64,000 bases of DNA from a virus, in IMG/VR virus record IMGVR_UViG_3300009788_000005, positions 1-64,000 of that record; one strand, 5' to 3'. The position numbers and the translations under genes are program-made. This document shows, piece by piece, positions 473 to 61,242 of this stretch (positions are counted from its first letter, which is position 1; each line of letters opens with the position of its first letter). The notes under the pieces were generated by a model. It worked only from the letters and a program-made list of their open reading frames with translations, made no database searches and had not been told where the DNA came from.

Positions 473-513
473 AATACAGGTGTAAAAATTTTACAGATTT
501 AGCAGTAATACCT

Positions 514-849
514 CTAATCAATTAAAGCATAATACATACTCTGTATGTGGGATAACCCGAAAGATATGCCTTTATAATACTTCACTACCTGATAGAAATG
601 TTCAAGTAATGATAGATCCTCCTGCTGCTCATCTGTAAACTCTGATAGATCAGGTACAGTATATTCCTTCTTACCTACAATACCTCCTCCCATAGCCCCT
701 ACTATCATACCTCCCGATCGTTTGCCCTGTCCCCTCTTCCTAGGTCCCCAATCGATTGTGTAGGTTCTCATAGGGATAACCGGATTAGGAATCTTATCTA
801 TCCTCTCCCGGTTATCATTTATATGATGTTTATCTTCCTGGGTAATCAT
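514..849 (-). CDS. hypothetical protein
   Basis: 111-aa ORF, co-oriented and tightly packed. Confidence 0.65.
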   Translation of the reverse strand: MITQEDKHHINDNRERIDKIPNPVIPMRTYTIDWGPRKRGQGKRSGGMIVGAMGGGIVGKKEYTVPDLSEFTDEQQEDLSLLEHFYQVVKYYKGISFGLSHIQSMYYALID

Positions 850-859
850 TACCGTAGTA

Positions 860-1105
860 TCAATTACTTAATACTTCACTATAGGAGTAGGGAAATCTTT
901 CTGATTTTATTATGTTAAACTTACTTTCCCCTAACCAACTATACAAAGATCTACGTATGCGCACTAAAGAATTATGCTCCTTATTATATAGATCTTGTAG
1001 AGTATTTTCTTTATAATTATCTACGTTTAAAAACTGACTAGTACGAGTTTCAACTACAATAGCCATATCTTTAATTACCTGCTGAGTAGAGTATTTATAC
1101 TTCAT
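860..1105 (-). CDS. hypothetical protein, probably early
   Basis: 81-aa ORF preceded by promoter cassette copy 2. Confidence 0.7.
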   Translation of the reverse strand: MKYKYSTQQVIKDMAIVVETRTSQFLNVDNYKENTLQDLYNKEHNSLVRIRRSLYSWLGESKFNIIKSERFPYSYSEVLSN

Positions 1106-1160
1106 AATCTTTTCGTTTAAGTATATCCAGAGATAAGGTAAGGTTATGAGAATTCCTAAT
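1103..1160 (-). promoter_or_regulatory. repeated promoter/leader cassette, copy 2 (variant -7 element TATCTCTG)
   Basis: Shares AACCTTACCTTATCT..G and AAACGAAAAGATTATG with copy 1. Confidence 0.65.
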
Positions 1161-1178
1161 AGGTGTAAAATTTTTACA

Positions 1179-1595
1179 CTATCTAGCCATATCCTCTACT
1201 GTCTTTTCCTTGTGACACTCTATACATAACGTCTGATATCCCTTCAAGGTACATCCTCCCCCTCCCTTATAAACGGGTATTATATGATCTGCCTGCCACC
1301 CCTTAGGATCTTCTACAGTTATATGACACTTAGCACATACTCCTTTATCCCTATACAATAACTGATCCCTAATAACCCGGATATCCCCCCATATAATACA
1401 TCTGTAGATATAAGCATTTCGCCTGCATACGTTATCTGTCCACCTAGTACGTCTACCTATAAGTATGGTACCACACCCACAAGCACACCTACCATCAGTC
1501 CTATAAGGAAAAATATCAGAAACACTCAACTGCTTCTGATATCTACTGTAAGGATCTATTGCACCCTTACGTATTAACTCTTCTCTGCTAACCAT
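1179..1595 (-). CDS. HNH endonuclease
   Basis: CAKC...WQADHIIPVYKGGG...YQTLCIECHKEKT HNH/zinc motif. Confidence 0.85.
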   Translation of the reverse strand: MVSREELIRKGAIDPYSRYQKQLSVSDIFPYRTDGRCACGCGTILIGRRTRWTDNVCRRNAYIYRCIIWGDIRVIRDQLLYRDKGVCAKCHITVEDPKGWQADHIIPVYKGGGGCTLKGYQTLCIECHKEKTVEDMAR

Positions 1596-1596
1596 A

Positions 1597-1827
1597 CTAA
1601 AATATAAGCCCTACATCCTCATTACTAACTGCCCTATCAAATTCCTTAAAGGTATAATATAACATAGAAGGTTTACCTATAACCGACTCATCTACTCCCT
1701 CCATTACTACAACACTACCATATTTTCCACCCATTTCTTTATTAGGCATAGAAGTTATTTTCTTCATAAAAAATACCTTACTCCCGATATTAAACCTTCT
1801 ACCTAAGTACTTATCTATATCATTCAT
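1597..1827 (-). CDS. hypothetical protein
   Basis: 76-aa ORF; ATG 3 nt after a palindrome. Confidence 0.6.
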   Translation of the reverse strand: MNDIDKYLGRRFNIGSKVFFMKKITSMPNKEMGGKYGSVVVMEGVDESVIGKPSMLYYTFKEFDRAVSNEDVGLIF

Positions 1828-1840
1828 ATCTGTAAAATTT

Positions 1841-2296
1841 TTACACCTTTAAGGCATCCATCAGAAACTTAAACGTACGTTCGTATATACCAGGATTCTT
1901 AGACTCCCTATTACCTGCTACATTCAATACTACTATTTCCTTATCCCTCAGGAACTTTAGAAACTGCTCCTTAGTAGGATTGCATATAACCGGCTTACTG
2001 TAGGAGGTACAATATCCAAAAGTGAATTTACTACCCGCACTATCTATATCTCCAAAAATTACCGTACCATCAGAGGCTATAATATTACTACCCGTACGAT
2101 CTCTATAGTCTCTGCTTTCTGTCTCTATAAGCCCATATCTTTCTCCTAGTACAGGCATAGGTCCCTTCTCCGTTCTAAAGTCCTTAGGTACTCTCCCTCC
2201 TGTCTGTAGACCTAATTGTATAGCAGCCTCTAACCCGGCTACATCGGCTCCCGTTTGCCCCCCTGATACTATCCTACTTAGTTTTAATTCCTTCAT
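1841..2296 (-). CDS. SLOG-superfamily protein (putative molybdenum carrier/YpsA-like)
   Basis: IVSGGQTGADVAGL, RTGSNIIASDGT, LNVAGNRES motifs; start placed at MKELK (2296); stop codon supplied by the palindrome. Confidence 0.8.
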   Translation of the reverse strand: MKELKLSRIVSGGQTGADVAGLEAAIQLGLQTGGRVPKDFRTEKGPMPVLGERYGLIETESRDYRDRTGSNIIASDGTVIFGDIDSAGSKFTFGYCTSYSKPVICNPTKEQFLKFLRDKEIVVLNVAGNRESKNPGIYERTFKFLMDALKV

Positions 2297-2358: not shown

Positions 2359-2832
2359 TCAAATACAAAACCGATCAGAATAAATTATCTTAGGTTCACA
2401 TGCTCTTTCCTTTACCCGTACTATACGGAAAGGTCCGGGATACTTGTAGGTATTGAGATCATTACTAAACTTCTCCCAAGCCCTTGCTACAGGTAGGGGC
2501 ATAAGTACTATATCTACCCGTCCCTTCTCCCATAAAACATACCATCTCCTTATAGCCTCTGATACATCTCTACCTAAATTAAAGCATAGTTCTATATCAG
2601 TAACGTATATAGGATCTCCATTCCCATGATCCCTTAGCCAATACTTATTCTCCTTCTCTTCAACCTCTAAACTCATAGCATCACACCACTCCTTAGAATG
2701 TCCGGGTAGTATCTCTCCAGTATCAAAATGAAAAGGATGAAAGCTACTAAAGTTAGCTATGCGTAACCCACTCTTTAACGTTAGCTGTTGTATTTGTAAT
2801 TCCATTATTAAAGGTAATGTTTTATATATCAA
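2359..2832 (-). CDS. hypothetical protein
   Basis: 157-aa ORF; start uncertain. Confidence 0.65.
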   Translation of the reverse strand: MIYKTLPLIMELQIQQLTLKSGLRIANFSSFHPFHFDTGEILPGHSKEWCDAMSLEVEEKENKYWLRDHGNGDPIYVTDIELCFNLGRDVSEAIRRWYVLWEKGRVDIVLMPLPVARAWEKFSNDLNTYKYPGPFRIVRVKERACEPKIIYSDRFCI

Positions 2833-2859
2833 TATACAACCTGTAAAAATTTTACATAC

Positions 2860-3255
2860 CTAACCAAAAATAAACAACGCCAACAAAAATATCAATACCC
2901 ATATAAGACATCCTCTATTGCCTGTACCCCATCTAGGTAATGTCTGATCACTACCCCTATATATACTATTATGATTCTGCCTACCTACCTGATCCGTATC
3001 ATCTCCTTTTCCTGAAAAATGTCTGTGATCCTCATTAGTAACTCCTACATACTGATGAGCATGCTCATCCACTGACTTAACCATTTGTAAAGTAAATACA
3101 TGTGAGTATAACTTATACGAGTTGGCTAACCTATCCTCCTGCTCATCTACATCCTTACACCCCTCATCCTTATAAGCCTGCTCTATCTTCTCCCTCTGCT
3201 TAATCCATCTCTCCAGGCTATTCTTAATAATCATTACCTTTTTATCCTCAGCCAT
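2860..3255 (-). CDS. hypothetical protein with C-terminal membrane anchor
   Basis: Ends GCLIWVLIFLLALFIFG; bracketed by palindromes at 2842 and 3260. Confidence 0.7.
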   Translation of the reverse strand: MAEDKKVMIIKNSLERWIKQREKIEQAYKDEGCKDVDEQEDRLANSYKLYSHVFTLQMVKSVDEHAHQYVGVTNEDHRHFSGKGDDTDQVGRQNHNSIYRGSDQTLPRWGTGNRGCLIWVLIFLLALFIFG

Positions 3256-3290
3256 AATATGTAAAATTTTTACACCCTAAATATAAACAA

Positions 3291-4189: not shown

Positions 4190-4409
4190 TTATTAGGGCT
4201 TTATTCCACTTATTGCAATGCATTACCGACCAACACCACTCTATAAAAGTAGGATCATTATCTCTTAGCCGGCAAAACTCTTCCTCCTCACTCATGTTAT
4301 CCCTTTCTTCCCGAACTTCTTTTAATACATCCTCAAAAGTTAAGACCCTATCATACATAGATAAATCCTCTTCTATATACATTATACTACCTGTAAAAAT
4401 TTTACACAC
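4146..4409 (-). CDS. hypothetical protein
   Basis: Acidic small ORF; the annotated start runs through the palindrome, so the real start is probably MYIEED. Confidence 0.5.
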   Translation of the reverse strand: MCKIFTGSIMYIEEDLSMYDRVLTFEDVLKEVREERDNMSEEEEFCRLRDNDPTFIEWCWSVMHCNKWNKALINVHTYKCEKVTEDK

Positions 4410-6454: not shown

Positions 6455-7089
6455 AACTGATATCTAATTACTTCATCATCCTTACCCTTAATATCTATTC
6501 TCATAACTAATCCATCACACATCTCTTTTACAATAAAGGACATAATATTATAATCCAACGTATGATAACTACCCGTATACGATACATATACCAATCTAAA
6601 ATATTCATTAGGTATACTAATATCATTAAATCTATCCTCCATCAAATTAAGAACCCGGATTAGATTACTTACCCTATCCCTTAAAGATATAGAAAAATCA
6701 TTCTCTACAATACTGTAGTAACTCTTGTCATGACTATCATTAACCTGATAATACCTCTTATGATCTATGTAAATCGTGTACCTATCACTTATAGGCTTAT
6801 CGGATACCGTTGCTACCCCTATACCCTCATTACCCGATTTAGGATCTTCGCCCACCCTAGTATCAAACCCCTGTACCTCCATAGCGTAATTGAATCCCTT
6901 TATAAAACACTCTCTCATTAAATCATCATCAGCATCCTCAAACCCTAACCCCATCTGCTCTTGTACAAATTTATTAACTACCTCCTCAGCCTTATCCTTA
7001 ACCATCCGACTTAAAGCAATGTGGGCTAATTCTTCTCCGGTAAATGCTTCTTTATCACTCATAGCTACCAAAGATCCGATAATAACCAA
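6451..7089 (-). CDS. hypothetical protein
   Basis: 212-aa ORF; start probably MSDKEA. Confidence 0.65.
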   Translation of the reverse strand: MVIIGSLVAMSDKEAFTGEELAHIALSRMVKDKAEEVVNKFVQEQMGLGFEDADDDLMRECFIKGFNYAMEVQGFDTRVGEDPKSGNEGIGVATVSDKPISDRYTIYIDHKRYYQVNDSHDKSYYSIVENDFSISLRDRVSNLIRVLNLMEDRFNDISIPNEYFRLVYVSYTGSYHTLDYNIMSFIVKEMCDGLVMRIDIKGKDDEVIRYQL

Positions 7090-7511
7090 TACCCTACCTC
7101 ACACTCGTCCTCAGGTATATTAAACTCTTTAATAAATTCCTCTAACTCTTCCCTACAATCCTTAGCTTTAATTATCTCATCCAGGTCTAATAGCATAGGA
7201 TCATTCCAATCACCATCAGCTAATACTCTTCCCCGCATAGTAACAACTATATCAGGCTCCTCATCACCTCCACCACTAGCCTGCTCATAGGGACAAGGGT
7301 TATCTTCATTCCACTTACCTACCTTATCAAAGTACTCTGATTCATCATCATCTCCCTTACCCTCTATAAGCTCCCCCTCTACATAAGGACTCTCAATATC
7401 CATACCGTGTTTCTCCTGCCACCACTCCTCAAGATTATCCCCTTCCCAAGGAAGATACTCAGCATCAACTTTTATTCCATATACAAAAACACTTCTCGGA
7501 TCATGTCCCAT
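7065..7511 (-). CDS. highly acidic hypothetical protein
   Basis: 148-aa ORF strongly enriched in D/E. Confidence 0.7.
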   Translation of the reverse strand: MGHDPRSVFVYGIKVDAEYLPWEGDNLEEWWQEKHGMDIESPYVEGELIEGKGDDDESEYFDKVGKWNEDNPCPYEQASGGGDEEPDIVVTMRGRVLADGDWNDPMLLDLDEIIKAKDCREELEEFIKEFNIPEDECEVGYWLLSDLW

Positions 7512-7888
7512 AATCTTATATTTTTATTTATTCCTAGACTGTAAAATTTTTACATGCCCTCTAAATGATCCTTAGCCTTACTATCCGGAGGTAATACTCC
7601 AGTAGCCTTATGTAATCTCTCTACATTTCTTATCAACCTATCATTACAAGATTTGCAGTAATCTACACGGCTAATATACCTCTTATCCTTAACTTATGTG
7701 GGTACGCTGCACAACACTTATACTCAACTTCCTTACTACCATGAGTATTACTAAGAGACCAAGTAGGAAGACGTACACTCCCTATAAAGATTACATACTT
7801 TCCATCTGTTATATAACTGTACTTCTTAAAGTAATCTTTCTTCTTAATACGCATATACAAATATACTCAGTATAGATAACAAAAGATA

Positions 7889-8258: not shown

Positions 8259-8304
8259 AAACTGAAAAGAAAATACTTTAATAAAAGTGTAAAATTTTTA
8301 CAGT

Positions 8305-8472
8305 CTATCCCTTATCCTCATATCCTGTAGATTTAATCTCTGCCGGAGTAGTCCACATGTTACCACAATTATTACAGGACCAGGTACCTAAACCCATGTA
8401 GACAAATGTACCTCCCTGAACTCCCTTAATGCCACAATCATTACACTGCCTAATAACTATTCTAAGGATCAT
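8305..8472 (-). CDS. small zinc-ribbon protein (55 aa, absent from the ORF track)
   Basis: My translation MILRIVIRQCNDCGIKG...WSCNNCGNMW...; two CxxC; bracketed by palindromes at 8288 and 8481. Confidence 0.6.
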   Translation of the reverse strand: MILRIVIRQCNDCGIKGVQGGTFVYMGLGTWSCNNCGNMWTTPAEIKSTGYEDKG

Positions 8473-8490
8473 ATCTAACCTGTAAAATTT

Positions 8491-8709
8491 TTACACCCTC
8501 CCCTTAGAACCTCCCTTAACACCCTTCATTAATTCAGCCTGCCTAATAACCTCTTCCCTCCTATCTAGCTCATCCTCAATTAATTTCTGATTCCATAAAG
8601 CCCTATGCCAATCAACCATACTAGTAGTTAATTTAAGAATTCTCTCATACCTATGATATAGGGTATGTAACATTATCTCACTATACTCCTCTATAGGTAT
8701 ATTACTCAT
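8491..8709 (-). CDS. hypothetical protein
   Basis: 72-aa ORF whose TAA lies in the palindrome. Confidence 0.6.
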   Translation of the reverse strand: MSNIPIEEYSEIMLHTLYHRYERILKLTTSMVDWHRALWNQKLIEDELDRREEVIRQAELMKGVKGGSKGRV

Positions 8710-8966
8710 ACTATGGGCTCCTCATAATAGTATACTACAGAACTATACCCTTCTGCTACTATCTCTCCGTTATCTACAAATTTCATAAATCCGGGTAATA
8801 GATACATTATAACCTCTACGTTATCCCTATCTATACATATCTCCTCCAAAACTACTATAGGCTCCTGCTCAACCCCTATAAGCCACTGTCTTTGAGGTAA
8901 GCCTACTAATCTAAATTTCTTATCTCCTATACTAAGTACTTTACCTAACAAATCTTCAATAATCAT
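8706..8966 (-). CDS. hypothetical protein
   Basis: 86-aa ORF with ATGA overlaps. Confidence 0.6.
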   Translation of the reverse strand: MIIEDLLGKVLSIGDKKFRLVGLPQRQWLIGVEQEPIVVLEEICIDRDNVEVIMYLLPGFMKFVDNGEIVAEGYSSVVYYYEEPIV

Positions 8967-10246: not shown

Positions 10247-10271
10247 TTACACCTGTAAAAATTTTACACTT

Positions 10272-10484
10272 TTACTTCAATAAAGGATTAACCGTATCCT
10301 TTGCCCTACTCTTATTATAGACTATCAACCTTTCTATACAAGTAGGACCAATTACCTTAGATCCATCCGTAGTGGACTTGCGCATAACACACCACTTACA
10401 CGGATGTAAATTATGCGCACCGCACAATACTGTTAATGATCTACCCCTATAATGTATTACCTGCAATAATTTATGTACAGCCAT
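10272..10484 (-). CDS. hypothetical Cys-rich protein
   Basis: 70-aa ORF. Confidence 0.45.
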   Translation of the reverse strand: MAVHKLLQVIHYRGRSLTVLCGAHNLHPCKWCVMRKSTTDGSKVIGPTCIERLIVYNKSRAKDTVNPLLK

Positions 10485-12694: not shown

Positions 12695-12724
12695 CTGTAA
12701 AATTTTTACACTCCATCATTATTC

Positions 12725-14073: not shown

Positions 14074-14094
14074 ACCTGTAAAAATTTTACACCC

Positions 14095-17069: not shown

Positions 17070-17127
17070 ACACAAAGATACACAGCCTAAGGTAAGATTA
17101 CAAGGGTGTAAAAATTTTACAATACTA

Positions 17128-18399: not shown

Positions 18400-18441
18400 A
18401 TACAAATATGTAAAAATTTTACATCCTATACCCAAATAATT

Positions 18442-22735: not shown

Positions 22736-22767
22736 AATTACACCTGTAAAATTTTTACACCTATAAT

Positions 22768-49473: not shown

Positions 49474-49548
49474 TATATGCCTGTAAAAATTTTACACACC
49501 CCAACAGACATAAAAAGTACTAACTCTACTACTTCATATATATAAAAT

Positions 49549-50704: not shown

Positions 50705-52885
50705 TTATACTCCATCCCTCACTAAATAAAATTCACATAACGCTAATAAATCTTCAGGTTGCCAATCCTTAACCTCATTTAACAAATAAATACCCTCAGC
50801 TATTAGAGCAGTCCTAATAATCTTGAACGTAGTGAAATCTAAATTATGTATTTGAGACTCCGTTAGCGTACACCATATTTCTACCGACCTTCCTCTATCT
50901 AAAATACCTAACAAAAAAGCATAAGTATTACTTATTATGCCTGGAAAAACTGTTATTACTCCTAACTGTAAAGTGGGTCCTATCCTCCTATCTACTACAT
51001 CCCCATACGATACAGCAAACTCAGTATTATAATTATAATAATCTACCATATACGCATGAGGATAAAGATCCTCTACCCCAACTATCCCCGTACCAGGATC
51101 ATACTCCCACTTTAAAGGGGCAAAATATCCCGCATCAACCTCATCTATTAATCCCTCATAATAACATATTCTGGGAGCAAAATCATGAGATATTAACTCC
51201 TCTGGATTAGTAGTAGGAAAAGGGGGTTCTGGTACCGTTTTCCACATAGCTAGCCATTGAATTTGTGCAGGAGGTACACTTGTTTGATTAAGGTTGTGCC
51301 TATTTATATTCCATGTAGGAGAATATGTAGGATTAATACTTTCCTCCCTACATATATCTGACGGATCAAATATAGCCTCCCCCGAATATAACCCTTTACC
51401 TCCTAAATTCTCTTCTTCTATTATTTTTACAAAAGCATCACTACTATCCTTTTTAAAAGAGAAAACAAAATTTCTACACTTACCTTTATCTATTTCCTGT
51501 ACTATATCCCTACCACAATCTACCCTATCACTCCACTCCTCTTGTACTTGTGGTCTATAAAATTCTGTTGCCGTAGATACCGTAACTTCCTTAGAACTTT
51601 CATTAGTCTCCCAATATAAATTCTCCAGATGAGTAACCCCATCTAATATATTTTTAACAGTTAATTTAGGGTCCATAGTCTCACACAATTCTATAGTAGA
51701 TCCTATACCTTTAACCTTAGGATTTGTAGGTCTGAAATCCCAAATAGCTTTAAGTATACCTATTGTTATTTGATCACACGGAGGAGGACCTATTAAACAT
51801 TGATCATTAACCCACCTAAGTTTAACTATATCATCCTTAAACAATATAAGAGTAATACACAAATTTATACCCGAAATAGGTATATAAGGCGCTAATGTTA
51901 CTGAAATCGCATTTACTTCTATATGCAAAGATAAACATCCCGCTACTATTCCCTGTCCTGGGTCAACAGTAACACATATCTCCATCTCCGCATCTATAGG
52001 CTGTTCCCACTCTCTTATATTAATAAAGAATCCTCCATTATTTATATCAAATCTCATAAACTGCCCCTCACCCAAAACATCACACGAGTCATATAAATAA
52101 GGCCCTTGATGTACTGCCTGAGCAGTTAACTCAGTTTCCTGATCAAAAGTAAGATCCCAAGCACCACGAGTAAACATATGCATTAAACCCTTATACCTAT
52201 TAGAGTTTATATAATCTCCTTTAAGAGTATATCCTATTTCAGCAAAAGCAACCTGAAATATATGAGCTATATATACATGAGGACGTAAATCCTGTATGTT
52301 TACATTTATAGACCCATCTACAAACCACCCATAATGTACAGGGAAATATGCAGCCCCTATAAAAGTGTGATCAAAAACCACCCCCAATTTACCCTTTCTA
52401 TCCCAACTATTTCTAGTAGTGGTATCATCAAAAATATGAGATCCTAAAGGTAAATCGCAAGCAAATAATTTATCTAATAAAGATACCCACCTAAATCTAC
52501 CCCCGGTAAGATCACATTCATAAAATATAGTTCCTAGAGTTTCATTAGTTCTCATTTCTGTTACCTGCAATACTCCTACACTATAAAGTATATCTACCCC
52601 ATTAACCAATAACTGAGCATCTATATCTATATCAAGAATATTATTAGTAATAACATCTACCCTAAATACATACTGTAAAGCCTTATTAGTTCTAGGGGTA
52701 CCTGAAAGCTCTACATTTTTTGAAAAGTGATTTTTAGGTTTAGATATATCCGTAATATCATTTACAGAATATGATGAAGCTATATCAAGGGCTTTAAATA
52801 AATCAACCTCAAACCAATTTAACCCCCCACTAGGTCTTATCAACAAACATATAGTAGTTAGGGTAGCTGATCCTCCTTTACTCAT
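50705..52885 (-). CDS. tail protein (tail tip/hub-like)
   Basis: 726 aa; VNDITDISK...FSKNVELSGTPRTN N-terminus typical of Bacteroidota siphovirus tail proteins. Confidence 0.7.
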   Translation of the reverse strand: MSKGGSATLTTICLLIRPSGGLNWFEVDLFKALDIASSYSVNDITDISKPKNHFSKNVELSGTPRTNKALQYVFRVDVITNNILDIDIDAQLLVNGVDILYSVGVLQVTEMRTNETLGTIFYECDLTGGRFRWVSLLDKLFACDLPLGSHIFDDTTTRNSWDRKGKLGVVFDHTFIGAAYFPVHYGWFVDGSINVNIQDLRPHVYIAHIFQVAFAEIGYTLKGDYINSNRYKGLMHMFTRGAWDLTFDQETELTAQAVHQGPYLYDSCDVLGEGQFMRFDINNGGFFINIREWEQPIDAEMEICVTVDPGQGIVAGCLSLHIEVNAISVTLAPYIPISGINLCITLILFKDDIVKLRWVNDQCLIGPPPCDQITIGILKAIWDFRPTNPKVKGIGSTIELCETMDPKLTVKNILDGVTHLENLYWETNESSKEVTVSTATEFYRPQVQEEWSDRVDCGRDIVQEIDKGKCRNFVFSFKKDSSDAFVKIIEEENLGGKGLYSGEAIFDPSDICREESINPTYSPTWNINRHNLNQTSVPPAQIQWLAMWKTVPEPPFPTTNPEELISHDFAPRICYYEGLIDEVDAGYFAPLKWEYDPGTGIVGVEDLYPHAYMVDYYNYNTEFAVSYGDVVDRRIGPTLQLGVITVFPGIISNTYAFLLGILDRGRSVEIWCTLTESQIHNLDFTTFKIIRTALIAEGIYLLNEVKDWQPEDLLALCEFYLVRDGV

Positions 52886-52906
52886 GACTGTAAAAATTTT
52901 ACACCT

Positions 52907-53341
52907 CTATCTTATAGTGGTTTTACGTTTCTTTTCTTCTACTGTAACACTAACATTACCTATAGGCTTAATCCCTATTTGTTTTATACTAACATACACA
53001 TCATACACAATAGTAACCACTGCACACAAATAAAGCGAATAGAGCGTAGATACTATTAAAGCTATAGCTATGTACCACCCAGAGAAAGATAGCATCACAC
53101 AAGCCACGATACACCCCCCTAAAGCAGGAATACCTCCCCATATAGATACCATACATTTATAGCAGGTTAAAAAGGGCTTAGCCCAATAGGTACCCAACCT
53201 ACTCTCAAACCATAACCTAACCCCACTTAAAATAAACATCCTCCCCCTATCATCTTTATGATTAGCGGCAATAAAAGCCCCTATAATAATAAAGGCATTA
53301 ATAAACGATATCAAAATAAAACACAAAATATACTCAACCAT
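52907..53341 (-). CDS. membrane protein (three hydrophobic segments, CxxCxxxW)
   Basis: KPFLTCYKCMVSIWG between hydrophobic helices. Confidence 0.65.
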   Translation of the reverse strand: MVEYILCFILISFINAFIIIGAFIAANHKDDRGRMFILSGVRLWFESRLGTYWAKPFLTCYKCMVSIWGGIPALGGCIVACVMLSFSGWYIAIALIVSTLYSLYLCAVVTIVYDVYVSIKQIGIKPIGNVSVTVEEKKRKTTIR

Positions 53342-53351: not shown

Positions 53352-54929
53352 TCACAAATTAGTTATTGATTTCTTTATAGAAACAGGTTTATATCTGATA
53401 GGTATCTGTACTACCTTATTTGATGCACTTGATACCAATACTTGCTCATCACCCAACACCACTACGGGAATGAGATCGTTATCATCACCTTTAACCATAT
53501 ACACCTCTGGGCTAGAAAAGAAATCAACTAATCTTTCCCTGGTATAATCAGTATTTGGTAACCTATGAGTATATATTCTAAACTCTTCCTCATAAGTCTT
53601 ATTATATATTAATGTTCCTCCAGGAGGACTAAAACAAGACTCACACCCATAAAAATCCTGAGCTGTTATATCCATCTTAAAAAAAGATTCACAGGTACCC
53701 TCCAATATATCCCACCTACCAAACTTATTTAAGTAATAAAATACGGATCTACAATCACAACACTCTCTCTCTTTCCTGCTTCTATAGTTAATTATGATAA
53801 TCTGAAAATTTCTCCCCATATCATCACCAAAATTAACAGAAGCTATACCTTCATAGTGATCTAATATAGTTTCTGACTGATCGGCTATACCAGTTATATT
53901 CATACACAATATACCGTCCCTGGTTAGTACAATATTCTCAACATAAATAGAAGCTCCTCCACCCTGAGAAGGAAAAGTAGTAACCTGTAAAGTCCATGTT
54001 ACCGGAGTAACCGTATCTCCTGCAACATGTGCATACAATAAAAACTCTGTACCCGCACAAAAAGTAAGCTGATCAGTATCTATTACATGTAAAAATTTTG
54101 CATCTACATTATTAAAATATGAGTGATCAAATAAAGCTACTCCAGGTGCATCCTTATCAGCACACAAAGCATTAGTAAATGAGTACGAATCATCTGATAC
54201 CTCAAATATACCCACACCATTTGTATCCTCTACTGCAAACCTAAAAAACATTAAGGCTAATGTTTGATACTGTATTTCCAAAAAAGGAGGTACCAGCGTA
54301 CCCAGTACAGGAATAGGACTTTTTATTACGTCCCGTATAAACTGATCTACCGGTATACATACCTCTAATTCAGGATCACCCGTAAATTTATCAGTAGTAA
54401 GTTTAGGTATAGCAATAATATTATCTATCAAACAAAACTCGAACCCTGATAAACTAATATTAATATGCAACTGTACTAATATCTTATAAGGAGATTTAAC
54501 CTCAATATCTACCCCAGGAGTTAAAGACATTACAAATAAAGGCGAAGTTTCCTGAGCATAAACTATATCAAATTCTGATCCGGGTCTATTGGCAAATATA
54601 AATATTACAGATATTATAGGAAGTATTAAATAATTAGCCGGAGTAGCAAACTGTAATGAAGATATTGCAGCAGCCGTATTATTTAAGGTAGCAGTTACAC
54701 TTCCTCCTATTAAAATATCAAATACTCCTACAGGAACAGTCCTATACGTAAATTGGACTCCATCTATAGAAAAAGTGTCTCCGTCTAAAGGTTGTACTAC
54801 TAAAGCTAATTGTATTGCCCATCTTCCTCCAGGATTAACAATATAATCCGTATCCTCAAAGCATATACAAAACTTACAATGGGCAGGATATAAAGTATCC
54901 TCCTCTATAGGCAAATGTGTTAAGGACAT
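53352..54929 (-). CDS. tail/structural protein (distal tail-like)
   Basis: 525 aa; C-terminal YLNKFGRWD...FFSSPEVYM motif. Confidence 0.65.
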   Translation of the reverse strand: MSLTHLPIEEDTLYPAHCKFCICFEDTDYIVNPGGRWAIQLALVVQPLDGDTFSIDGVQFTYRTVPVGVFDILIGGSVTATLNNTAAAISSLQFATPANYLILPIISVIFIFANRPGSEFDIVYAQETSPLFVMSLTPGVDIEVKSPYKILVQLHINISLSGFEFCLIDNIIAIPKLTTDKFTGDPELEVCIPVDQFIRDVIKSPIPVLGTLVPPFLEIQYQTLALMFFRFAVEDTNGVGIFEVSDDSYSFTNALCADKDAPGVALFDHSYFNNVDAKFLHVIDTDQLTFCAGTEFLLYAHVAGDTVTPVTWTLQVTTFPSQGGGASIYVENIVLTRDGILCMNITGIADQSETILDHYEGIASVNFGDDMGRNFQIIIINYRSRKERECCDCRSVFYYLNKFGRWDILEGTCESFFKMDITAQDFYGCESCFSPPGGTLIYNKTYEEEFRIYTHRLPNTDYTRERLVDFFSSPEVYMVKGDDNDLIPVVVLGDEQVLVSSASNKVVQIPIRYKPVSIKKSITNL

Positions 54930-55159: not shown

Positions 55160-55618
55160 CTAATTGCCCTCAATACTTGTAAGCATCCTTAGTACCTCAT
55201 CTCCTATCCCTAACCTGTCTACCTCTACATCTAATATCCGGGTTATAATTACCTCTGATTCCCTAATTAAATTTATAGGGCGTCTCGGATTTATAGCTAT
55301 AGATCGTGCTAACAAAAAATCAGGAATAGACAAACCTTTAGCTCTCTTCCACTCAGCCAAAGGCTTAACCAACTTAAACCTACCTCCCACTCTTCTTACA
55401 GGGAACTTAGTATTAGCTCTCTTGCCTCGTTGAATAAACAAATAACCCCCACCCGTAAATACATCAAAAGTTATAATGTTTGAAGATACGGTAGTAACTA
55501 CCTGTATAGAATTGAAAGTAGTTTTGGTAACTACCTTCCTATGCCTTACTAAAGGAGCCTGGAAAGCCTTCTTTATAAGTCCTGCCAAACGTATTACCCT
55601 ACCTTGATCTACTGCCAT
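55160..55618 (-). CDS. putative neck/tail completion protein
   Basis: Basic protein; FIQRGKRA..KFP...EWKRAKGL...FLLARSIA. Confidence 0.55.
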   Translation of the reverse strand: MAVDQGRVIRLAGLIKKAFQAPLVRHRKVVTKTTFNSIQVVTTVSSNIITFDVFTGGGYLFIQRGKRANTKFPVRRVGGRFKLVKPLAEWKRAKGLSIPDFLLARSIAINPRRPINLIRESEVIITRILDVEVDRLGIGDEVLRMLTSIEGN

Positions 55619-55814
55619 AAGGTGTAAAAATTTTACAGGTCTATTTACTATCTCCCAAATTTACCTTTTCAAGATACTTACTGCAAGTAACCTTAGATAA
55701 ATTAGTAGTAGCTACAACTACCTCCTCCTTACCGCAAGCTACAAACCAAGTCCCCTCACCATCTGACTCATTAGGTGAGGTATCTATTATTTTATAATGT
55801 TTAACAAACATACT

Positions 55815-56408: not shown

Positions 56409-57621
56409 TACTTTTTAGTTTTGGTCCTAGCCTCTTCCTCTGCTTCTTTTCTCATTCTAATATGTTCCTTATTTACCATAGTACCGTGCTGATTCATATA
56501 CCTAAGATAATTAAAAACTTTATAAGTAGGTAATGCCATTATCTTCTCTTCCGTATCTGGCGTATAACTGGCAGGTATAAGACTTTCTCTGAGTACTCCC
56601 ATCCAATCCCAAACTTTATAAAAGGCTAATCTTTCGGGGCTTACCGGCTTGCCTATATCCTCTTGTGACTCAAATACATCTAAGTATTTAGTGTCAAGAG
56701 CTTCCGTGCCTGTATAAAAAAATTTATTATAGCCTTAGCCTTATCAAGGGATAACGTCTTAAAATACTTAGCTCTAAGTCCTGCCAAGTTCTCATTATAC
56801 TTTTCACCCTGAGGTACACAAATATGAGATATTAATTTATGAGCATTACCAAATATATTCTTCTTAAACTCAGCAGCATAACCTGCAATAAGTTTAGCCC
56901 TCTCATTCTTCTCTTTCATATCAGTCATACTATCCCAATCCATCTTCTCCACCCACTCCATATACTTATCCTCGTCTATATCTTCTGCCGCCATTTTATC
57001 TTTTAAAGCCTGAGGTATAGAGGGAGATTGTTTCCTGATAAAATCAGTATTCATCCTACTTGCGAAATCTACCTCTGCTACCGGCACCAATACAAAAAAT
57101 CCTTTTTCTAATTTATTAATCTTAGACCTTATCCTCCTCCGTTTAATAATCTCCCACACCTTAACCTTAGCTAACTCATTCTTCAATATCTCTATGTCTG
57201 GAGCCATTGATTCTGAATGATAGAAATGTATTATAGGATCTACAGCCTGAACAGAGACTATAGAAATAGATTCCTTTAATACAAATAGATTAGGTACCGG
57301 TACTCTTCCTAAGACATCATGCTCAGATTGAGGTAAGACAAACCTTAGTTGGTTAGATACAATATCTATAAGCTGTAAATTCAACTCAGCTATATCTAAC
57401 TCTATATTTGAACTCATTACACTCATCCCTGCACCGTCCTCAGTAACCATACTTAATTGTAACTCCAAATCATCAAACCTGGATTTAACTTCTACCTCAT
57501 CAGGTAGCAAAGATGTAAACCCCTGGAAACCTCCTAAAGTTAAATCGCAATCTTCTGTAGGTATATTAAGATACTCAGACCCGGCAGATGTTTCTATAGT
57601 TAATTTCTCCATATCACTCAT
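56408..57621 (-). CDS. tail assembly chaperone pair (G at 56680..57621; GT via -1 frameshift, ending 56408)
   Basis: Slippery A-AAT-TTT-TTT at 56716-56725; the -1 frame is open (YTGTEALDTKYLDVF...FYKVWDW) into ORF 56408..56602. Confidence 0.75.
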
Positions 57622-58507
57622 TTACTAATTTTGCCTTCAACTTAAGTTCCAACCCTATTAGTCTCTTTGCCTCATCTAATGTAAACCTCCTATTTTCTCC
57701 TAAATACTTTAGAGATTGTAAAGCCTCATCTATCTCACAAATATTTAACCAAATTTCCTCCCCCCTATCCTCCAAATATTCTAAGGCATCGTTAACCGTA
57801 AGATGTGATAGACTATGTTCCTCAGGTTTCCTCTTCCACTCTTCTATAACCTTTAATAACTCCTCCCCTACATTCTCATGATAATCTACAGGTATTTTAG
57901 ATACAGCCCTCAATAAGGTGTAAGTACCTATACAATTATTTAACATTACCTTCTCATCATTTTTCGTATGAGATAATTTATCTAGTAACTTATTTATCTG
58001 TAGGTATGTATTTTTTATAGGGTTACGTATACCTTTATACTGAAGGTTATCAGTAAGTATACCCTCTATTGTCTCATACCCTCCCTGAAACAATAATAAC
58101 CCAGATATCATATTTTCCATAGCTAATAAATATCCTTTAGTCCTTTGATCCGGCATAGTAATAGATGCCCTACCATACTTAAGTAAATGATTATTCAAAA
58201 TCTCAAATAAGAATAATTGCATATAACCATATACCTGACACTTATTAGTTAGATTAAAAAAATTAAAGCCCATAGACATAACATACTGTATACTATTCAA
58301 ACTACTAGTACCTTTATCAGATATAATTTTAGTAATAGTTATTTCCCAATCCCACCCCTCTTTCTTACCCTCAACATTTCTAACCTCAACATTCTTAAGC
58401 CCATCGGCTACATAATGATGTAATTCAAATGTTGTACTAGTTATTTTACTAATAAGTTTACTTTTATCTACTGTCCTATTACCTGTCTTTATAAGTTTCT
58501 TACTCAT
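57614..58507 (-). CDS. hypothetical protein
   Basis: 297-aa ORF; ATG 3 nt after a palindrome. Confidence 0.7.
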   Translation of the reverse strand: MSKKLIKTGNRTVDKSKLISKITSTTFELHHYVADGLKNVEVRNVEGKKEGWDWEITITKIISDKGTSSLNSIQYVMSMGFNFFNLTNKCQVYGYMQLFLFEILNNHLLKYGRASITMPDQRTKGYLLAMENMISGLLLFQGGYETIEGILTDNLQYKGIRNPIKNTYLQINKLLDKLSHTKNDEKVMLNNCIGTYTLLRAVSKIPVDYHENVGEELLKVIEEWKRKPEEHSLSHLTVNDALEYLEDRGEEIWLNICEIDEALQSLKYLGENRRFTLDEAKRLIGLELKLKAKLVNE

Positions 58508-58520
58508 ATCTGTAAAATTT

Positions 58521-59171
58521 TTACACCTTATTAATACGCTTATCCCTATAAACTCTCATAGTACCTATAGCTAATTCATGTACTGCATTATTTCTTAAAT
58601 CCGAGCTATGCCCTGGTACGTGACATACATTTATCAAATAATGCTTATCTGTTTTTTTAATCTCCCATACCTTATTCCACAGCTCTTTATGCTCTATCAC
58701 CCCCCCATCAGATTTCTCCCAATCCTTAAAATACCATGACACCAAATAAGAATTATAGGCATTAACTACATATAAAGAATCACACATTATTCTTAGCATA
58801 GTATTAGGCTTATACCTTTTATGCCAACATAATACCCTATATAATCCTAATGCTTCTGTCTTACCTGTTTTCCACCCCTCCAAAGCCTCAGCCTCCTCAT
58901 ATATACATTCCCTTCCTTGACCTATATAAACCCTAAGCCCATAAGCCCCAAATATTCTTCCTTCATGCTCCTCATAATTACTATTTAATATGTGGCTACT
59001 ACCATCTGTATAAGCAACACATATTACAGGAGTAGCCGGTTTCTCCTTAAACCTAATTGCCGGATGTACTATCCTTTTAGGTAAGGGTATATCCCCAGGA
59101 AAATCTACATCCTCTTCTCTCCTGGGTCTATCAGGATCTACCCACAACTTTTTAGTATCTCCTTCATTCAT
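58521..59171 (-). CDS. rnhA: ribonuclease HI-like protein
   Basis: AYTDGSS, TEALG, CDSLYVVN, HKELW, HVPGHS; last Asp position reads His (NNAVHELA). Confidence 0.85.
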   Translation of the reverse strand: MNEGDTKKLWVDPDRPRREEDVDFPGDIPLPKRIVHPAIRFKEKPATPVICVAYTDGSSHILNSNYEEHEGRIFGAYGLRVYIGQGRECIYEEAEALEGWKTGKTEALGLYRVLCWHKRYKPNTMLRIMCDSLYVVNAYNSYLVSWYFKDWEKSDGGVIEHKELWNKVWEIKKTDKHYLINVCHVPGHSSDLRNNAVHELAIGTMRVYRDKRINKV

Positions 59172-59442
59172 TAGATTCTGAATTTTTTAGTACTTCCTGT
59201 AATGTAGGATTTATAAATTCAGTAGATAATTTAGTAGGGTATATAGATTCCCCGTATGTTATGGTAGCTACATATATCTTCCCCGTAAACAAAAACTTAA
59301 TCCTCTTCCAAAGCCCCATACTCCAACATATAACTACCCCTTTTTCTATTGTAGCGATATCTTTAAAAGCGGGTACAGGTTTCATACCTACTTTACCCGC
59401 ACCATATACCGTATTTTGCTGCTTAAATTTTATCGGTTTCAT
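59164..59442 (-). CDS. hypothetical phage protein
   Basis: MKPIKFKQQN...VICW...FLFTGKI. Confidence 0.7.
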   Translation of the reverse strand: MKPIKFKQQNTVYGAGKVGMKPVPAFKDIATIEKGVVICWSMGLWKRIKFLFTGKIYVATITYGESIYPTKLSTEFINPTLQEVLKNSESNE

Positions 59443-59516
59443 GTTAATAATTTTACACCCTAAAAATACAAAAAATGTACCGAGCTACAATATCACCATA
59501 ACCGATAAATAAAATA

Positions 59517-60194
59517 CTAACCATTAACAAATATCTTTCCTACACTACTTACATAAACCTCCTTAAATACAGGAATAGAATATATCAAATTAAAATATAA
59601 CTTCTTCCTAAAACACTGCTCATAAGTATCTGACATTATACGTCCTATATCCCCGTATTCTTTTTGTCGTATCCCTACCCATATAGCAGCCTGTATATCC
59701 CTTGGATAAGCATCTATGCATATACAATAATTACGTATGCTGTATTCTATCTCAGAGTATTGTTTATCTGACACCGAAAAATATTCTTTACCCTTATAAA
59801 TTCGAGGTTTTAATCCAAAAGCTTTAGCAATCCACATATCTACTACTACAGCCTGCTCATCTCCAAACATAGCCCTCCTAAAAGATTCTATTTTTCTACC
59901 TCCTAACTCTTCAAAATTAACCGCTCTTACTACCTGAGGTACCATAGCAGGTAAGAAATCAGGATCATCATTTTCCCCTAAAATATTTACCCCCTCCTGA
60001 ATCCTCCTTAGTACTTTCAAAGTTAATGTTACATTGCTTTGTATAGTTGATCTCTGACTAGTAGCGGCTAACAACCAAATAACTATTACCCAATCATCCC
60101 CAAATAATTTCTTAATAAATTTCAAATTAGATTCATACCAACTTTTATGGTTAGACCCTAATTTAATATACTCCTTTATATCTCGCGTAATCAT
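59517..60194 (-). CDS. HhH-GPD glycosylase-fold-like protein (putative)
   Basis: WY...LAATSQRSTI..N...GRKIESF...VVVDMW...Y......QAAIW pattern. Confidence 0.55.
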   Translation of the reverse strand: MITRDIKEYIKLGSNHKSWYESNLKFIKKLFGDDWVIVIWLLAATSQRSTIQSNVTLTLKVLRRIQEGVNILGENDDPDFLPAMVPQVVRAVNFEELGGRKIESFRRAMFGDEQAVVVDMWIAKAFGLKPRIYKGKEYFSVSDKQYSEIEYSIRNYCICIDAYPRDIQAAIWVGIRQKEYGDIGRIMSDTYEQCFRKKLYFNLIYSIPVFKEVYVSSVGKIFVNG

Positions 60195-60205
60195 TTGTAA
60201 AAATT

Positions 60206-60899
60206 TTACACATAGTAAGTAAATAATTTCTCTAGCCTATGATCATAATTTTCACCTTTTTTATTTATAGTGGTTTGATGATTTATTTCTCTAACACACT
60301 CAAAATCTTCAGGAGCATTATACTCAGATACATAAACTCTATGCCCTTCCTTAGCTCTTTCCCTACACCATACCCAAAAAGATTTATGATCAAAAGGATA
60401 TGCATAACCTAAAACACCCTCATAGGGTTTATCACAATAAATAATACTATTAGAGGGTATGACCAACCCTCTATAATCTCCCGCATAAAATTGTACTCCT
60501 TCTAAATTGTTTGCTTGTCTTAATAAATTATCTCTACCCTCCCTGGAATAATTTCTACGATCATCCTTAGCATAACCTCCCCACCACTTACCCCCGAAGG
60601 AGCATAAAAAAACCTACAAATCCTACTAGATGATTAAGGTAATTACCCTTATTACTTTTAATAGAGTAGTACTCCCCTCTAGAAACATCTGTAGGGGGTA
60701 CCCAACCATCTCTAACAGCTATAAGTAAAGCTATAAGGTACATATGATTATCATTACCTATCCTATTCCCCGTAACCTTATCGATCATATTAGCACCTCC
60801 TACAAAAGGCTCTACATAATATTGATTGTGTCTACGACCTAATAAAATTATCCGTAATAACTCTTTAGCTAATCTGTTCTTACTCCCTACGTACTTCAT
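60206..60899 (-). pseudogene. dam: Dam-like DNA adenine methyltransferase split by a 1-nt frameshift in a T7 run
   Basis: MKYVGSKNRLAK, EPFVGGAN; removing one T at 60606-60612 gives GFLCSFGGKWWGGY...IIYCDKPY...VYVSEYNAP in one frame. Confidence 0.8.
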
Positions 60900-61126
60900 A
60901 TATCTGTAAAATTTTTACACATCTCTTCAATTTCTCCCCACTCTCTCAACTCTTCCGAAAATATTTCCCCTGCCTGTTGTAGGGTTATTAACCCCTCATC
61001 AAAAGCCCTCTTAAAATCCTCCTCACTCAATTCATCATCCTCTTTACGTGCATAGTAACAGCACTCCTTAGCAGCATCTTTAATAGATGCTATAACTAAT
61101 TCTAATAAATCATAATCAGATCTCAT
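60896..61126 (-). CDS. hypothetical acidic protein
   Basis: 76-aa ORF; C-terminal CKNFT is encoded by a palindrome. Confidence 0.6.
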   Translation of the reverse strand: MRSDYDLLELVIASIKDAAKECCYYARKEDDELSEEDFKRAFDEGLITLQQAGEIFSEELREWGEIEEMCKNFTDI

Positions 61127-61242
61127 ACCTACTTGTAAAATTTTTACACATCCTTATTAATCTCAATGTACACATAAACAACCCCTCCAACAAGACTAAT
61201 GCCGGCCCAGGCATGTTACCAGAATAAGAAGTTACAAAGTAT

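Follow-up and report, generated by a model that had tools for sequence, protein, structure and literature searches.

A near-invariant 15-bp palindrome at gene boundaries throughout a phage genome, a putative operator for a dimeric protein

In this work, we analyzed a 64,000-nucleotide stretch of viral DNA (the window, bases 1-64000 of the 85,758-bp IMG/VR virus record IMGVR_UViG_3300009788_000005), together with the whole of that record, for a 15-bp palindrome, TGTAAAAWTTTTACA, that occurs in all modules of the phage genome. The palindrome is a perfect 7-1-7 dyad, AT-rich and near-invariant from copy to copy, and is present in 30 exact copies in the window, the first at 481-495 and the last at 61134-61148. 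The whole record contains 44 exact and five one-mismatch copies (49 sites, versus 0 for a reversed-pattern control), which stand almost wholly between genes and often just before a start codon. We tentatively read the palindrome as an operator for a putative dimeric protein that would control transcription at gene boundaries, a reading that we regard as plausible but short of probable.

The excess of the palindrome over chance is very large. At up to two mismatches the window has 35 matches, comprising the 30 exact copies, five copies with one mismatch (at 18959, 34292, 42116, 46849 and 54088) and none with two, and two-mismatch copies numbered 0 in the whole genome as well. An earlier sequence-only reading of the window had reported 30 exact and five single-mismatch copies, all of which were recovered in our recount at exactly the coordinates it implied, and had estimated by hand that far less than one copy would be expected by chance. 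That estimate was borne out by 100 dinucleotide-preserving shuffles of the window, in which exact copies averaged 0.00 and never exceeded 0 (versus 30), and matches at up to two mismatches averaged 0.52 with at most 3 (versus 35). The count over the whole genome against codon-preserving shuffles, which the same reading had proposed, gave a comparable answer, as 200 shuffles that kept every called protein and the codon usage, with each intergenic stretch shuffled, contained a mean of 0.35 exact copies and a maximum of two versus the 44 observed. On the plus strand the exact copies of the window divide evenly by centre base, 15 with A and 15 with T, as first reported, and the 44 copies genome-wide divide into 20 with A and 24 with T, so that the motif has no strand preference.

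The placement of the palindrome is equally distinctive. Forty-five of the 49 copies are outside long reading frames on the coding (minus) strand, the remainder being two exact copies (20784 and 30842) and two one-mismatch copies (46849 and 54088). Gene starts were taken from a crude open reading frame (ORF) model, in which several of the TTG starts chosen are really promoter boxes; by that model six of the 44 exact copies are inside called ORFs in a genome that is 91% coding (binomial P ~7e-34). The distance from the end of the palindrome to the next called start is most often 3 nt (10/44) and is at most 13 nt in 23/44, with the other 21 copies being further from a start or having none. On the upstream side, the TAA of the preceding gene is inside the palindrome in eight of the 44 exact copies, and the upstream stop is within -5 to +6 nt of the palindrome start in 21. 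Three contexts recur: stop, palindrome and ATG within operons; a host-type promoter or terminator followed by the palindrome and then ATG; and stop, palindrome and then a conserved host-type promoter cassette. The palindrome marks the 5' boundary of approximately one gene in three, at a density of one per 1.9 kb.

The copies are also spaced more evenly than 44 random gene junctions, both in the coefficient of variation (CV) of their spacing (0.67 versus 1.10, P = 0.0004) and in their largest gap (5.8 kb versus a mean of 10.8 kb, P = 0.007). This agrees with the sequence-only reading, which had suggested that evenness be tested and had given about one copy per 1.8 kb and a largest gap below 4 kb; the 35 sites of the window have a mean gap of 1,784 bp and a maximum of 3,634 bp, the maximum being 5,777 bp for the 30 exact copies alone.

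To account for these features, we propose that the palindrome is a cis-acting recognition site of a putative sequence-specific homodimeric protein, most likely encoded by the phage. The site would work in duplex form as an operator at gene boundaries, comparable to mycobacteriophage stoperators but palindromic: once it is occupied, RNA polymerase could no longer initiate there, clear the promoter or transcribe on into the gene downstream, and one protein could switch ~45 evenly spaced segments of the genome. A perfect, orientation-free dyad without two-mismatch copies is the kind of site that would be expected for a symmetric dimer that recognizes double-stranded DNA. As a hairpin the palindrome is of marginal stability at 37 °C (-1.0 kcal/mol as RNA and -2.1 kcal/mol as DNA). 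The motif is also not dense in candidate host chromosomes, where the sequence-only reading had suggested looking, as it was found in 22 of 401 Bacteroidota genomes with a maximum of three copies in each, much like the reversed control, and the richest of these genomes has, with one mismatch allowed, 12 sites in ~2 Mb versus 49 in 86 kb here. A site for a host regulator is not supported by these exact and one-mismatch counts, which a degenerate host regulon would escape. Since the dyad is real and its centre free, the hairpin marginal and the motif rare in the host phylum, a dimeric sequence-specific reader is the simplest reading, and an operator is further supported by the intergenic placement, the even spacing, the operator-like positions at promoters, a motif that differs between lineages and the precedents of the Cluster O palindromes and L5 stoperators. 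That a protein binds the palindrome, that it does so as a dimer, that DNA and not RNA is its target and that binding represses are all steps that we infer from sequence.

The host of the phage is almost certainly a member of the Bacteroidota, because the genome has no Shine-Dalgarno (SD) signal, has host-type promoters of the TAnnTTTG type, encodes a type IX secretion sorting domain on one ORF, and has TerL relatives in that phylum. SD-like pairing was found before 18 of 94 genes without a palindrome, which matches the rate in random windows (0.167), and the nearest TerL relatives in genome bins are from Raineyaceae, Raineya, Crocinitomicaceae, Flavobacterium and Cyclobacteriaceae. Cultured phages are all distant, their best TerL match being ~26% identical (Arthrobacter phages), and no nucleotide match to the genome was found among cultured phages. 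A search of IMG/VR with the phage DNA polymerase as query also found no relatives.

Related phages, in which the sequence-only reading had likewise suggested looking for the motif, gave a mixed result: the palindrome itself is not found there, whereas other motifs occupy the same start-proximal place in some of them. Exact copies numbered 0 in 11 related phage records, and a scan of IMG/VR for the palindrome returned single-copy stretches only, among the 80 matches listed. Among 80 TerL-related IMG/VR loci (30–41% identity), exact-palindrome arrays were present in only three (L130, L143 and L156), whose records, G001, G002 and G003, have 36, 6 and 27 copies, respectively, of a different palindrome, TAAAGTWACTTTA (reversed control 0). 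In G001 this palindrome extends to 17 bp and is at most 5 nt before ATG in 19 of 36 copies by our count, and in G003 its distance to ATG is 2–23 nt, with two copies overlapping the box of host-type early promoters. Its centre is more commonly A on the coding strand (26/36 in G001 and 19/27 in G003), in which case its 3' half reads TAACTTTA, near to TAnnTTTG. G001 and G003 have 50 ORFs in common with a mean identity of 39%, and their DNA aligns in few short stretches, chiefly around TerL; despite that divergence they keep the same 13-bp palindrome core. The specificity of the motif, comparing TAAAGTWACTTTA with the palindrome of this phage, therefore appears to be lineage-specific.

A third motif was found in the TerL relative G011 (the record of L150; e.g., L291-L294), which has 14 copies of the non-palindromic 12-nt sequence TCAACGGAATAT. 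Thirteen of these are on one strand, nine of those 13 lie 1–8 nt before ATG, and several copies stand directly after hairpins. Nine other near-complete relatives have no array, including G005, which is as close to G001 and G003 as those two are to each other; near-matches to TAAAGTWACTTTA in G005 and G009 seem to be of the kind that AT-rich coding sequence yields by chance. As judged from these comparisons, near-invariant motifs that are specific to a lineage and pressed against start codons recur in this phage group with a patchy distribution, and dyad symmetry is frequent among them without being obligatory. A second, different use of palindromes is seen at early promoters of several relatives, where a palindrome of 14–18 bp covers the -33 region and a TAnnTTTG-type box follows ~20 nt later; examples are in L302 (a Flavobacterium sp. 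bin contig), L136/L137 (G005) and L168/L170, such as TTTTGTTT..AAACAAAA with six copies in 16 kb.

If the palindrome is an operator, its reader might be sought among the DNA-binding proteins of the phage. DNA-binding folds were recognized (Pfam and PHROGs) in only two gene products, the winged-helix protein of 61243..62121 and the ParB-like protein of 33048..34199. The latter is a true family member, as it matches PHROG 1033 (5e-12), and a profile of it with three relatives matches ParB 6t1f (2e-6), Spo0J 1vz0 (8e-6) and KorB 8qa8 (2e-4), covering both the N-domain and the helix-turn-helix in those structures; on its own the protein matched no solved structure and did not reach Pfam ParB_N. 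The palindromes could accordingly be loading sites at which such a protein clamps and from which it spreads, organizing, condensing, protecting or silencing the genome from ~45 positions. The even spacing of the copies fits this idea, as does the presence of a ~380-aa ParB-like protein in all three palindrome-bearing records (G001, G002 and G003), and both the helix-turn-helix and the palindrome are common to G001 and G003 while this phage differs in both. Sites of the family are short, near-invariant palindromes, and KorB is described in the available part of the source as a CTP-dependent clamp that silences at long range (PMC11790492).

We nevertheless consider ParB-type loading very unlikely, and the sequence-only reading's suggestion of the 33048..34199 protein as a candidate reader was not supported by comparison with relatives. 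ParB-like domains occur in seven of 10 array-less relatives, and the G005 orthologue, 38% identical to that of G001 and with nearly the same recognition region, accompanies 0 exact copies of TAAAGTWACTTTA; the protein therefore fails as a predictor of the array. Generic ParB-carrying phages also had no arrays. The closest homologue, P0123 (55% identity, on a 94.8-kb contig), which was the sole one among 5.8 billion proteins, has a Cys for the first Arg of the GxRR motif; its contig was not found in viral or metagenome contigs, and an alignment search led by the phage's ParB-like protein found no relatives. Protein families were assigned over 112 ORFs with Pfam and PHROGs, of which the commonest 13 and 25 families, respectively, were listed, and no ParA-type ATPase is among them. 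In addition, nothing about loading would call for a position 3 nt ahead of start codons. Beside the ParB-like gene of L259 are three copies of GTTTAGC-N-GCTAAAC, which resembles the KorB operator of IncP plasmids.

Other routes to a reader were no more productive. When every minus-strand ORF was searched iteratively against 12 related records, links were obtained solely for TerL, the replication genes and a few further genes, none of them encoding a small DNA-binding protein. Ten G001 ORFs with a homologue in G003 only, which were considered as readers by phyletic pattern, are mostly antisense artefacts. Possibly, the reader of the motif in G001 and G003 may be a conserved host factor.

Several observations weigh against an operator. 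The modal 3-nt spacing to ATG and the tight clustering of half the copies before starts are not predicted by an operator or roadblock, and the flanks on the coding strand are asymmetric, with G at positions -1 to -4 in 15–22 of 35 sites and T at +3 in 30 of 35. Dyad symmetry is not essential at that place, because the G011 motif is oriented and non-palindromic. A tight roadblock would be costly at the exact copies inside essential-looking ORFs (20784 and 30842). A weak pointer towards RNA is that both intergenic arm variants (34292 and 42116; n = 2) keep a U-G pair on the coding-strand RNA. The ParB-like protein fails to predict the array among the relatives, and no credible protein was found that is common to G001 and G003 and absent from the nine other genomes compared. 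No integrase, repressor, Cro/CI-type protein, sigma factor or RNA polymerase was recognized in the family matches listed, so that both the reader and a lifestyle needing global silencing are missing. The preference of the sequence-only reading for a dimeric duplex-DNA site over an RNA signal is thus favored by the dyad, the free centre and the weak hairpin, but the offset to ATG keeps RNA-level and promoter readings alive.

The surroundings of the copies bear on the latter. In four host-type promoter cassettes an identical distance of 53 nt separates the palindrome start from the end of the TAnnTTTG box that follows it, copy 43705 abuts such a box, and several other copies begin 8–27 nt after one; no fewer than eight copies precede a promoter instead of lying in a leader. 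Downstream of palindromes we also noted a conserved cassette of ~55 bp, consisting of TTAGGA, CCTTACCT, a TAnnTTTG box, an A-rich leader and ATG AAA (window 418-480, 1106-1163 and 8207-8287; genome ~72260-72320 and 80110-80146), whose spread by recombination is suggested by the fact that even the first codons are common to the copies. Strong intergenic terminator-like hairpins have a palindrome 4–54 nt downstream in seven of 12 cases, and such hairpins stand 4–20 nt upstream of copies 80775, 80147, 76804, 22745, 4392 and 3260. The palindrome itself is not an intrinsic terminator, as its stem is AT-rich and weak and has no T run, and separate strong terminators are upstream; neither is it a host sigma-A promoter, since the TAnnTTTG box is not within it and genuine boxes lie separately.

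Five host-type promoters (window 7865, 17080 and 36848; genome 78135 and 82046) have TAnnTTTG followed after 3 nt by an in-frame ATG, ahead of ORFs of 53–528 aa, one of which encodes a RecD/PIF1-like helicase. As the sigma-A box of Flavobacterium lies at -12 to -5 in the available part of the source (PMC9723704), these promoters should give leaderless mRNAs, which the phage therefore appears to use. Such mRNAs are rare in Bacteroidota (3.7–5.5% in the accessible parts of published transcriptomes).

Possibly, the palindrome is a phage-specific promoter or its core, from which a polymerase would start a few bases downstream to give near-leaderless mRNAs at about half of the sites, the remaining sites being second (tandem) promoters; the putative polymerase would be phage-encoded or redirected by a phage factor. 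We think this somewhat unlikely. The modal 3-nt offset to ATG is the spacing in the five leaderless-type host promoters, a terminator is followed by the palindrome in seven of 12 cases, and at copies 3260, 4392, 22745 and 49482, which stand after terminators, there is no host-type box before the gene. The density and even spacing fit transcription units, the near-invariance recalls promoters of phage-encoded polymerases, the G011 motif is oriented and start-proximal, and the 3' half of the relatives' palindrome is close to TAnnTTTG, with A the commoner coding-strand centre. T7-like phages have such near-invariant promoters for their own polymerases. A perfect dyad with an orientation-free centre would, however, fire both ways, and we know of no perfectly palindromic promoter class except the hairpin promoters of N4; no N4-type polymerase is present here, no RNA polymerase or sigma factor was recognized, and an 856-aa early protein considered as a hidden RNA polymerase had no family and no usable Atlas hit. 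The motif is also a poor match to the host -7 box, and in G001 the box-like half is only 2 nt from ATG, one base short of the spacing that the leaderless host-type promoters have. The rule that a terminator needs a promoter after it is not strict either, because four strong terminators precede genes with neither palindrome nor box.

The tight coupling to starts and stops could alternatively reflect an RNA-level element, a short hairpin 5' of AUG that would be read by an RNA-binding protein or nuclease of phage or host and would control translation initiation, re-initiation after the upstream stop, or mRNA processing or stability. Hairpins between SD and AUG are found in T4 genes 38 and 25, and T4 RegA and lambda boxB exemplify the recognition of RNA sites by phage proteins. 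Where the host makes no use of SD pairing, another aid to initiation is plausible, copies that follow promoters would stand at the very 5' end of the transcript, and the U-G pair kept in the arm variants fits as well. A translational role has also been proposed for the start-associated motif SAS of Cluster K mycobacteriophages, 3–7 bp before starts (PMC3203893, in the part available). An RNA-level element is in our view unlikely, since the RNA hairpin is worth only -1.0 kcal/mol, compensatory variation is absent because all copies are identical, and even spacing over the genome has no obvious translational reason. Moreover, in 21 of 44 copies the nearest start is over 13 nt away or missing, eight or more stand ahead of a promoter and so not in a leader, and the G011 motif cannot form a hairpin. 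An SD-hairpin-AUG design in the style of T4 gene 38 was considered separately and is not supported, because the G-rich 5' flank is SD-like at nine of 22 start-proximal copies versus 13 of 25 others, and the genome is without SD use.

A non-functional repeat, spread by recombination, gene conversion or mobile activity and perhaps forming cassette boundaries for gene gain and loss, is highly improbable. Three small ORFs (8305..8472, 60896..61126 and, in genome coordinates, 83257..83484) are each bracketed by two copies, the promoter-plus-leader cassette travels with the palindrome, and the distribution among relatives is patchy; in Cluster O mycobacteriophages, indels are flanked by the phages' own repeat, according to the accessible text (PMC4351075). 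On the other side, the constant distance of 3 nt to ATG and the regular spacing argue for selection, and an identical core is kept in G001, G002 and G003 despite ~39% protein identity. No transposase or RAYT-type protein was recognized among the families listed for the 112 ORFs. A mobile repeat of the REP/MITE type does not fit, the unit being a perfect 15 bp with no cognate RAYT/IS200-type transposase recognized; the mobile repeats known to us are far longer than 15 bp.

Among known systems, the sequence-only reading had likened the array to Noc binding sites (NBS), matS, KorB operators and stoperators. The stoperator-like analogue is retained, whereas a spread of the Noc or matS kind does not agree with the placement at gene boundaries and the modal 3 nt to ATG, a placement that points to gene expression and under which a promoter or an RNA-level element stays conceivable. 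The stoperators of L5 and of further phages in Cluster A are tens of near-identical intergenic sites at which the immunity repressor of a temperate phage blocks transcription. The likeness is in the many near-identical intergenic sites across the genome; stoperators are asymmetric, oriented and not at a fixed distance from ATG, while the sites here are palindromic and without orientation, in a genome in which no repressor or integrase was recognized among the families listed for the 112 ORFs. KorB operators of RK2, like ParB-parS and Noc-NBS, are dispersed, near-invariant palindromes of odd or even length, and a ParB-family helix-turn-helix protein is encoded here. The KorB system has about a dozen sites that are not start-codon-proximal and has a ParA partner, unlike the 44 start-proximal sites here with no ParA among the families listed and a co-occurrence that fails in G005.

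More local likenesses can be drawn to other phages. With the 3-nt spacing, the centre of the palindrome is 11 nt before the A of ATG, as the loop centre of N4 promoters is to +1, and hairpins directly 5' of AUG occur in T4 genes 38 and 25, with no SD use here; these N4 and T4 elements are present in one to three copies. A palindrome followed by a conserved promoter cassette recalls the T4 PeSL, which is much longer. Further comparables are the inverted repeats of phiC31 and the operators of P1.

The closest described array is that of Cluster O mycobacteriophages such as Corndog, which has 34 invariant copies of a 17-bp 7-3-7 palindrome and three one-off variants; in the available part of that account, dimeric binding proteins are suggested and function is left open (PMC4351075). 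Both arrays have more than 30 copies with invariant 7-bp arms, few variants, an A/T-rich centre and no clear orientation, with many copies in short intergenic regions, and the Cluster O motif is absent from hosts as ours is rare in the host phylum (PMC4351075). The Cluster O arms are 3 bp apart and GC-rich, 10–11 of the 34 Corndog copies are clearly inside genes versus two of 44 here, the host is actinobacterial and SD-using, and the accessible text reports no modal start-codon offset (PMC4351075). With a different motif and a TerL only ~26% identical to the nearest cultured phages (of Arthrobacter), the likeness is one of kind, not descent.

The SAS/ESAS motifs of Cluster K are likewise short, stand 3–7 bp before many starts with the upstream stop sometimes inside, are absent from the host and vary between subclusters, as far as the available part of the source goes (PMC3203893). 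They differ in being asymmetric, in one orientation, with an SD core and confined to the non-structural half, whereas the palindrome here is found in all modules (PMC3203893); the oriented motif of G011 is the closer SAS analogue. The role of SAS was still called unverified in the accessible part of a 2025 source (PMC12699233). The claim that the palindrome is the best candidate for an undescribed system was therefore overstated, as the Cluster O palindromes and the Cluster K SAS are already in print. The array is a further case of genome-wide invariant repeats, with its own features of a 7-1-7 structure, AT-richness and an SD-free host, and it is distinguished by its almost wholly intergenic placement, the modal 3-nt offset to ATG, the even spacing and the swapping of motifs among relatives. 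A limited literature search found no described palindrome array in Bacteroidota phages.

The individual sites and the three candidate readers named in the sequence-only reading are listed in Table 1. The record ends in terminal repeats of 123 bp and has a GC content of ~36%, with a GC skew of ~-0.35 that is uniform along the window; the skew and the ORF list place nearly all genes on the minus strand. The sole sequencing run listed with the stretch is a DNA run, with no RNA run listed, and comes from a subsurface metagenome that may be the origin of the record. Most of the 112 ORFs are without any family, and those recognized identify a tailed phage (tape-measure protein, portal, protease and TerL) with replication genes (DNA polymerase, primase, and DnaB-like and other helicases), a Mre11-Rad50-like protein, RNase H, RusA, HNH nucleases and a Dam-like methyltransferase.

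Table 1. Copies of the palindrome in the window and proteins considered as its reader. Copies are unstranded (.), and distances are read on the coding (minus) strand unless stated otherwise.
Feature	Coordinates	Strand	Context
ParB/Spo0J/KorB-family protein	33048..34199	-	383 aa; GFRR motif and helix-turn-helix; not supported as array reader
Winged helix-turn-helix protein	61243..62121	-	292 aa; HTH_24 3.4e-5; candidate
427-aa protein	8963..10246	-	sub-threshold helix-turn-helix hits only; candidate
Exact copy	481..495	.	18 nt past stop of 514..849; upstream of host-type promoter cassette for 88..420, with TATCTTTG box end 53 nt from palindrome start
Exact copy	1164..1178	.	abuts stop of 1179..1595; promoter-like cassette next; ATG of 860..1105 58 nt downstream
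Exact copy	1831..1845	.	upstream TAA inside palindrome; ATG of 1597..1827 3 nt downstream
Exact copy	2842..2856	.	3 nt past stop of 2860..3255; downstream ORF 2359..2805, start uncertain
Exact copy	3260..3274	.	16-20 nt past strong terminator-like hairpin; ATG of 2860..3255 4 nt downstream
Exact copy	4392..4406	.	17-19 nt past terminator-like hairpin; ATG 9 nt downstream
Exact copy	7540..7554	.	ATG of 7065..7511 28 nt downstream
Exact copy	8288..8302	.	upstream of promoter cassette (TATCTTTG ~8237); with 8481 brackets 55-aa ORF 8305..8472
Exact copy	8481..8495	.	TAA of 8491..8709 inside palindrome; ATG of 8305..8472 8 nt downstream
Exact copy	10254..10268	.	3 nt past stop of 10272..10484; ATG of 8963..10246 (427 aa) 7 nt downstream
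Exact copy	12696..12710	.	14 nt past stop of 12725..13306; start of 12392..12694 1-13 nt downstream (TTG/ATG, uncertain)
Exact copy	14077..14091	.	3 nt past stop of 14095..14370; ATG of 13855..14073 3 nt downstream
Exact copy	17107..17121	.	6 nt past stop of 17128..17496; upstream of host-type promoter (box, then 3 nt, then ATG of RecD/PIF1-like helicase)
Exact copy	18409..18423	.	between divergent units; minus-strand ATG 9 nt away; plus-strand promoter cassette for 18494..18943
One-mismatch copy, centre G/C	18959..18973	.	convergent junction of 18985..19596 (-) and 18494..18943 (+)
Exact copy	20784..20798	.	inside Mre11-Rad50-like ORF 19598..22735
Exact copy	22745..22759	.	11-13 nt past strong terminator-like hairpin; Mre11-Rad50-like ATG 9 nt downstream, no host-type box between
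Exact copy	24379..24393	.	25 nt past DNA polymerase stop; within 5' end of ORF 23910..24422 (start uncertain)
Exact copy	27963..27977	.	ATG of 27432..27959 3 nt downstream
Exact copy	30842..30856	.	inside ORF 29999..30964, ~108 nt past its ATG
Exact copy	32210..32224	.	ATG of 32000..32206 3 nt downstream; primase gene next
One-mismatch copy, last base G (coding strand)	34292..34306	.	4 nt past DnaB-like stop; upstream of TACCTTTG promoter of ParB-like gene
Exact copy	36893..36907	.	TAA of 36903..37484 inside; host-type boxes follow, one with ATG 3 nt on
Exact copy	40527..40541	.	ATG of 39922..40509 17 nt downstream
One-mismatch copy, last base G (coding strand)	42116..42130	.	ATG of 40582..42087 28 nt downstream
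Exact copy	43705..43719	.	abuts TATTTTTG box; ATG of protease-like gene 42162..43676 28 nt downstream
One-mismatch copy	46849..46863	.	inside tape-measure ORF
Exact copy	49482..49496	.	54 nt past long terminator-like hairpin; called GTG start of tape-measure gene 8 nt downstream
Exact copy	52889..52903	.	3 nt past stop of 52907..53341; ATG of 50705..52885 3 nt downstream
One-mismatch copy	54088..54102	.	inside ORF 53352..54929
Exact copy	55623..55637	.	ATG of 55160..55618 4 nt downstream
Exact copy	58511..58525	.	TAA of RNase H-like gene 58521..59171 inside; ATG of 57614..58507 3 nt downstream
Exact copy	60196..60210	.	TAA of Dam-like methyltransferase frame inside; ATG of 59517..60194 1 nt downstream
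Exact copy	60905..60919	.	in last codons of 60896..61126; Dam-like methyltransferase ATG 5 nt downstream
Exact copy	61134..61148	.	ATG of 60896..61126 7 nt downstream; with 60905 brackets that 76-aa ORF

Some further features of the genome and its relatives were noted. The D12-class (Dam-like) adenine methyltransferase gene (window 60206-60899, minus strand) is split where the reading frame changes within seven consecutive T at ~60600, and it could be misassembled, a pseudogene or subject to programmed slippage; the catalytic motif DKPY is in the downstream frame, which has its TAA end within the palindrome at 60196. The Mre11-Rad50-like protein is a single ORF here (window 19598-22735), while G001 and G003 (L210 and L211) have separate Mre11-like and Rad50-like genes with the ParB-like gene between them. 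A single tRNA with anticodon CAT (genome 80237-80309, minus strand; L120:237-309) is probably not an initiator and of Met or Ile2 type, because positions 1-72 are paired. In an Ignavibacteriaceae bin contig with a related terminase, an 8-bp unit, AAAGATTC/G, is repeated in tandem over a long stretch (L315:11452-12900).

Genome-wide repeats at gene boundaries have previously come from actinobacteriophages, and of these only stoperators have a known reader and mechanism. An independent case in a different phylum, in hosts without Shine-Dalgarno pairing, removes one confounder from the debate on SAS. In addition, nature has provided two unrelated palindromes and one oriented motif at the same place, as well as an equally related phage without an array, a set that should allow a clean test of DNA, RNA and promoter readings and a search for the reader. 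A broader proposal, which we also think unlikely, is that some uncultured Bacteroidota phages carry a private 13–17-bp signal at the start codons of many genes, palindromic in this phage and in the lineage of G001 and G003 and oriented in G011, at which a putative phage factor would start or process leaderless or near-leaderless transcripts; if true, this would be a bypass of the host's unusual SD-free initiation rules, and one protein with a specificity that varies between lineages could switch a whole genome. Should the palindrome turn out to be a small, transferable switch or promoter that works in Bacteroidota, genetic work on that phylum would gain a useful tool.

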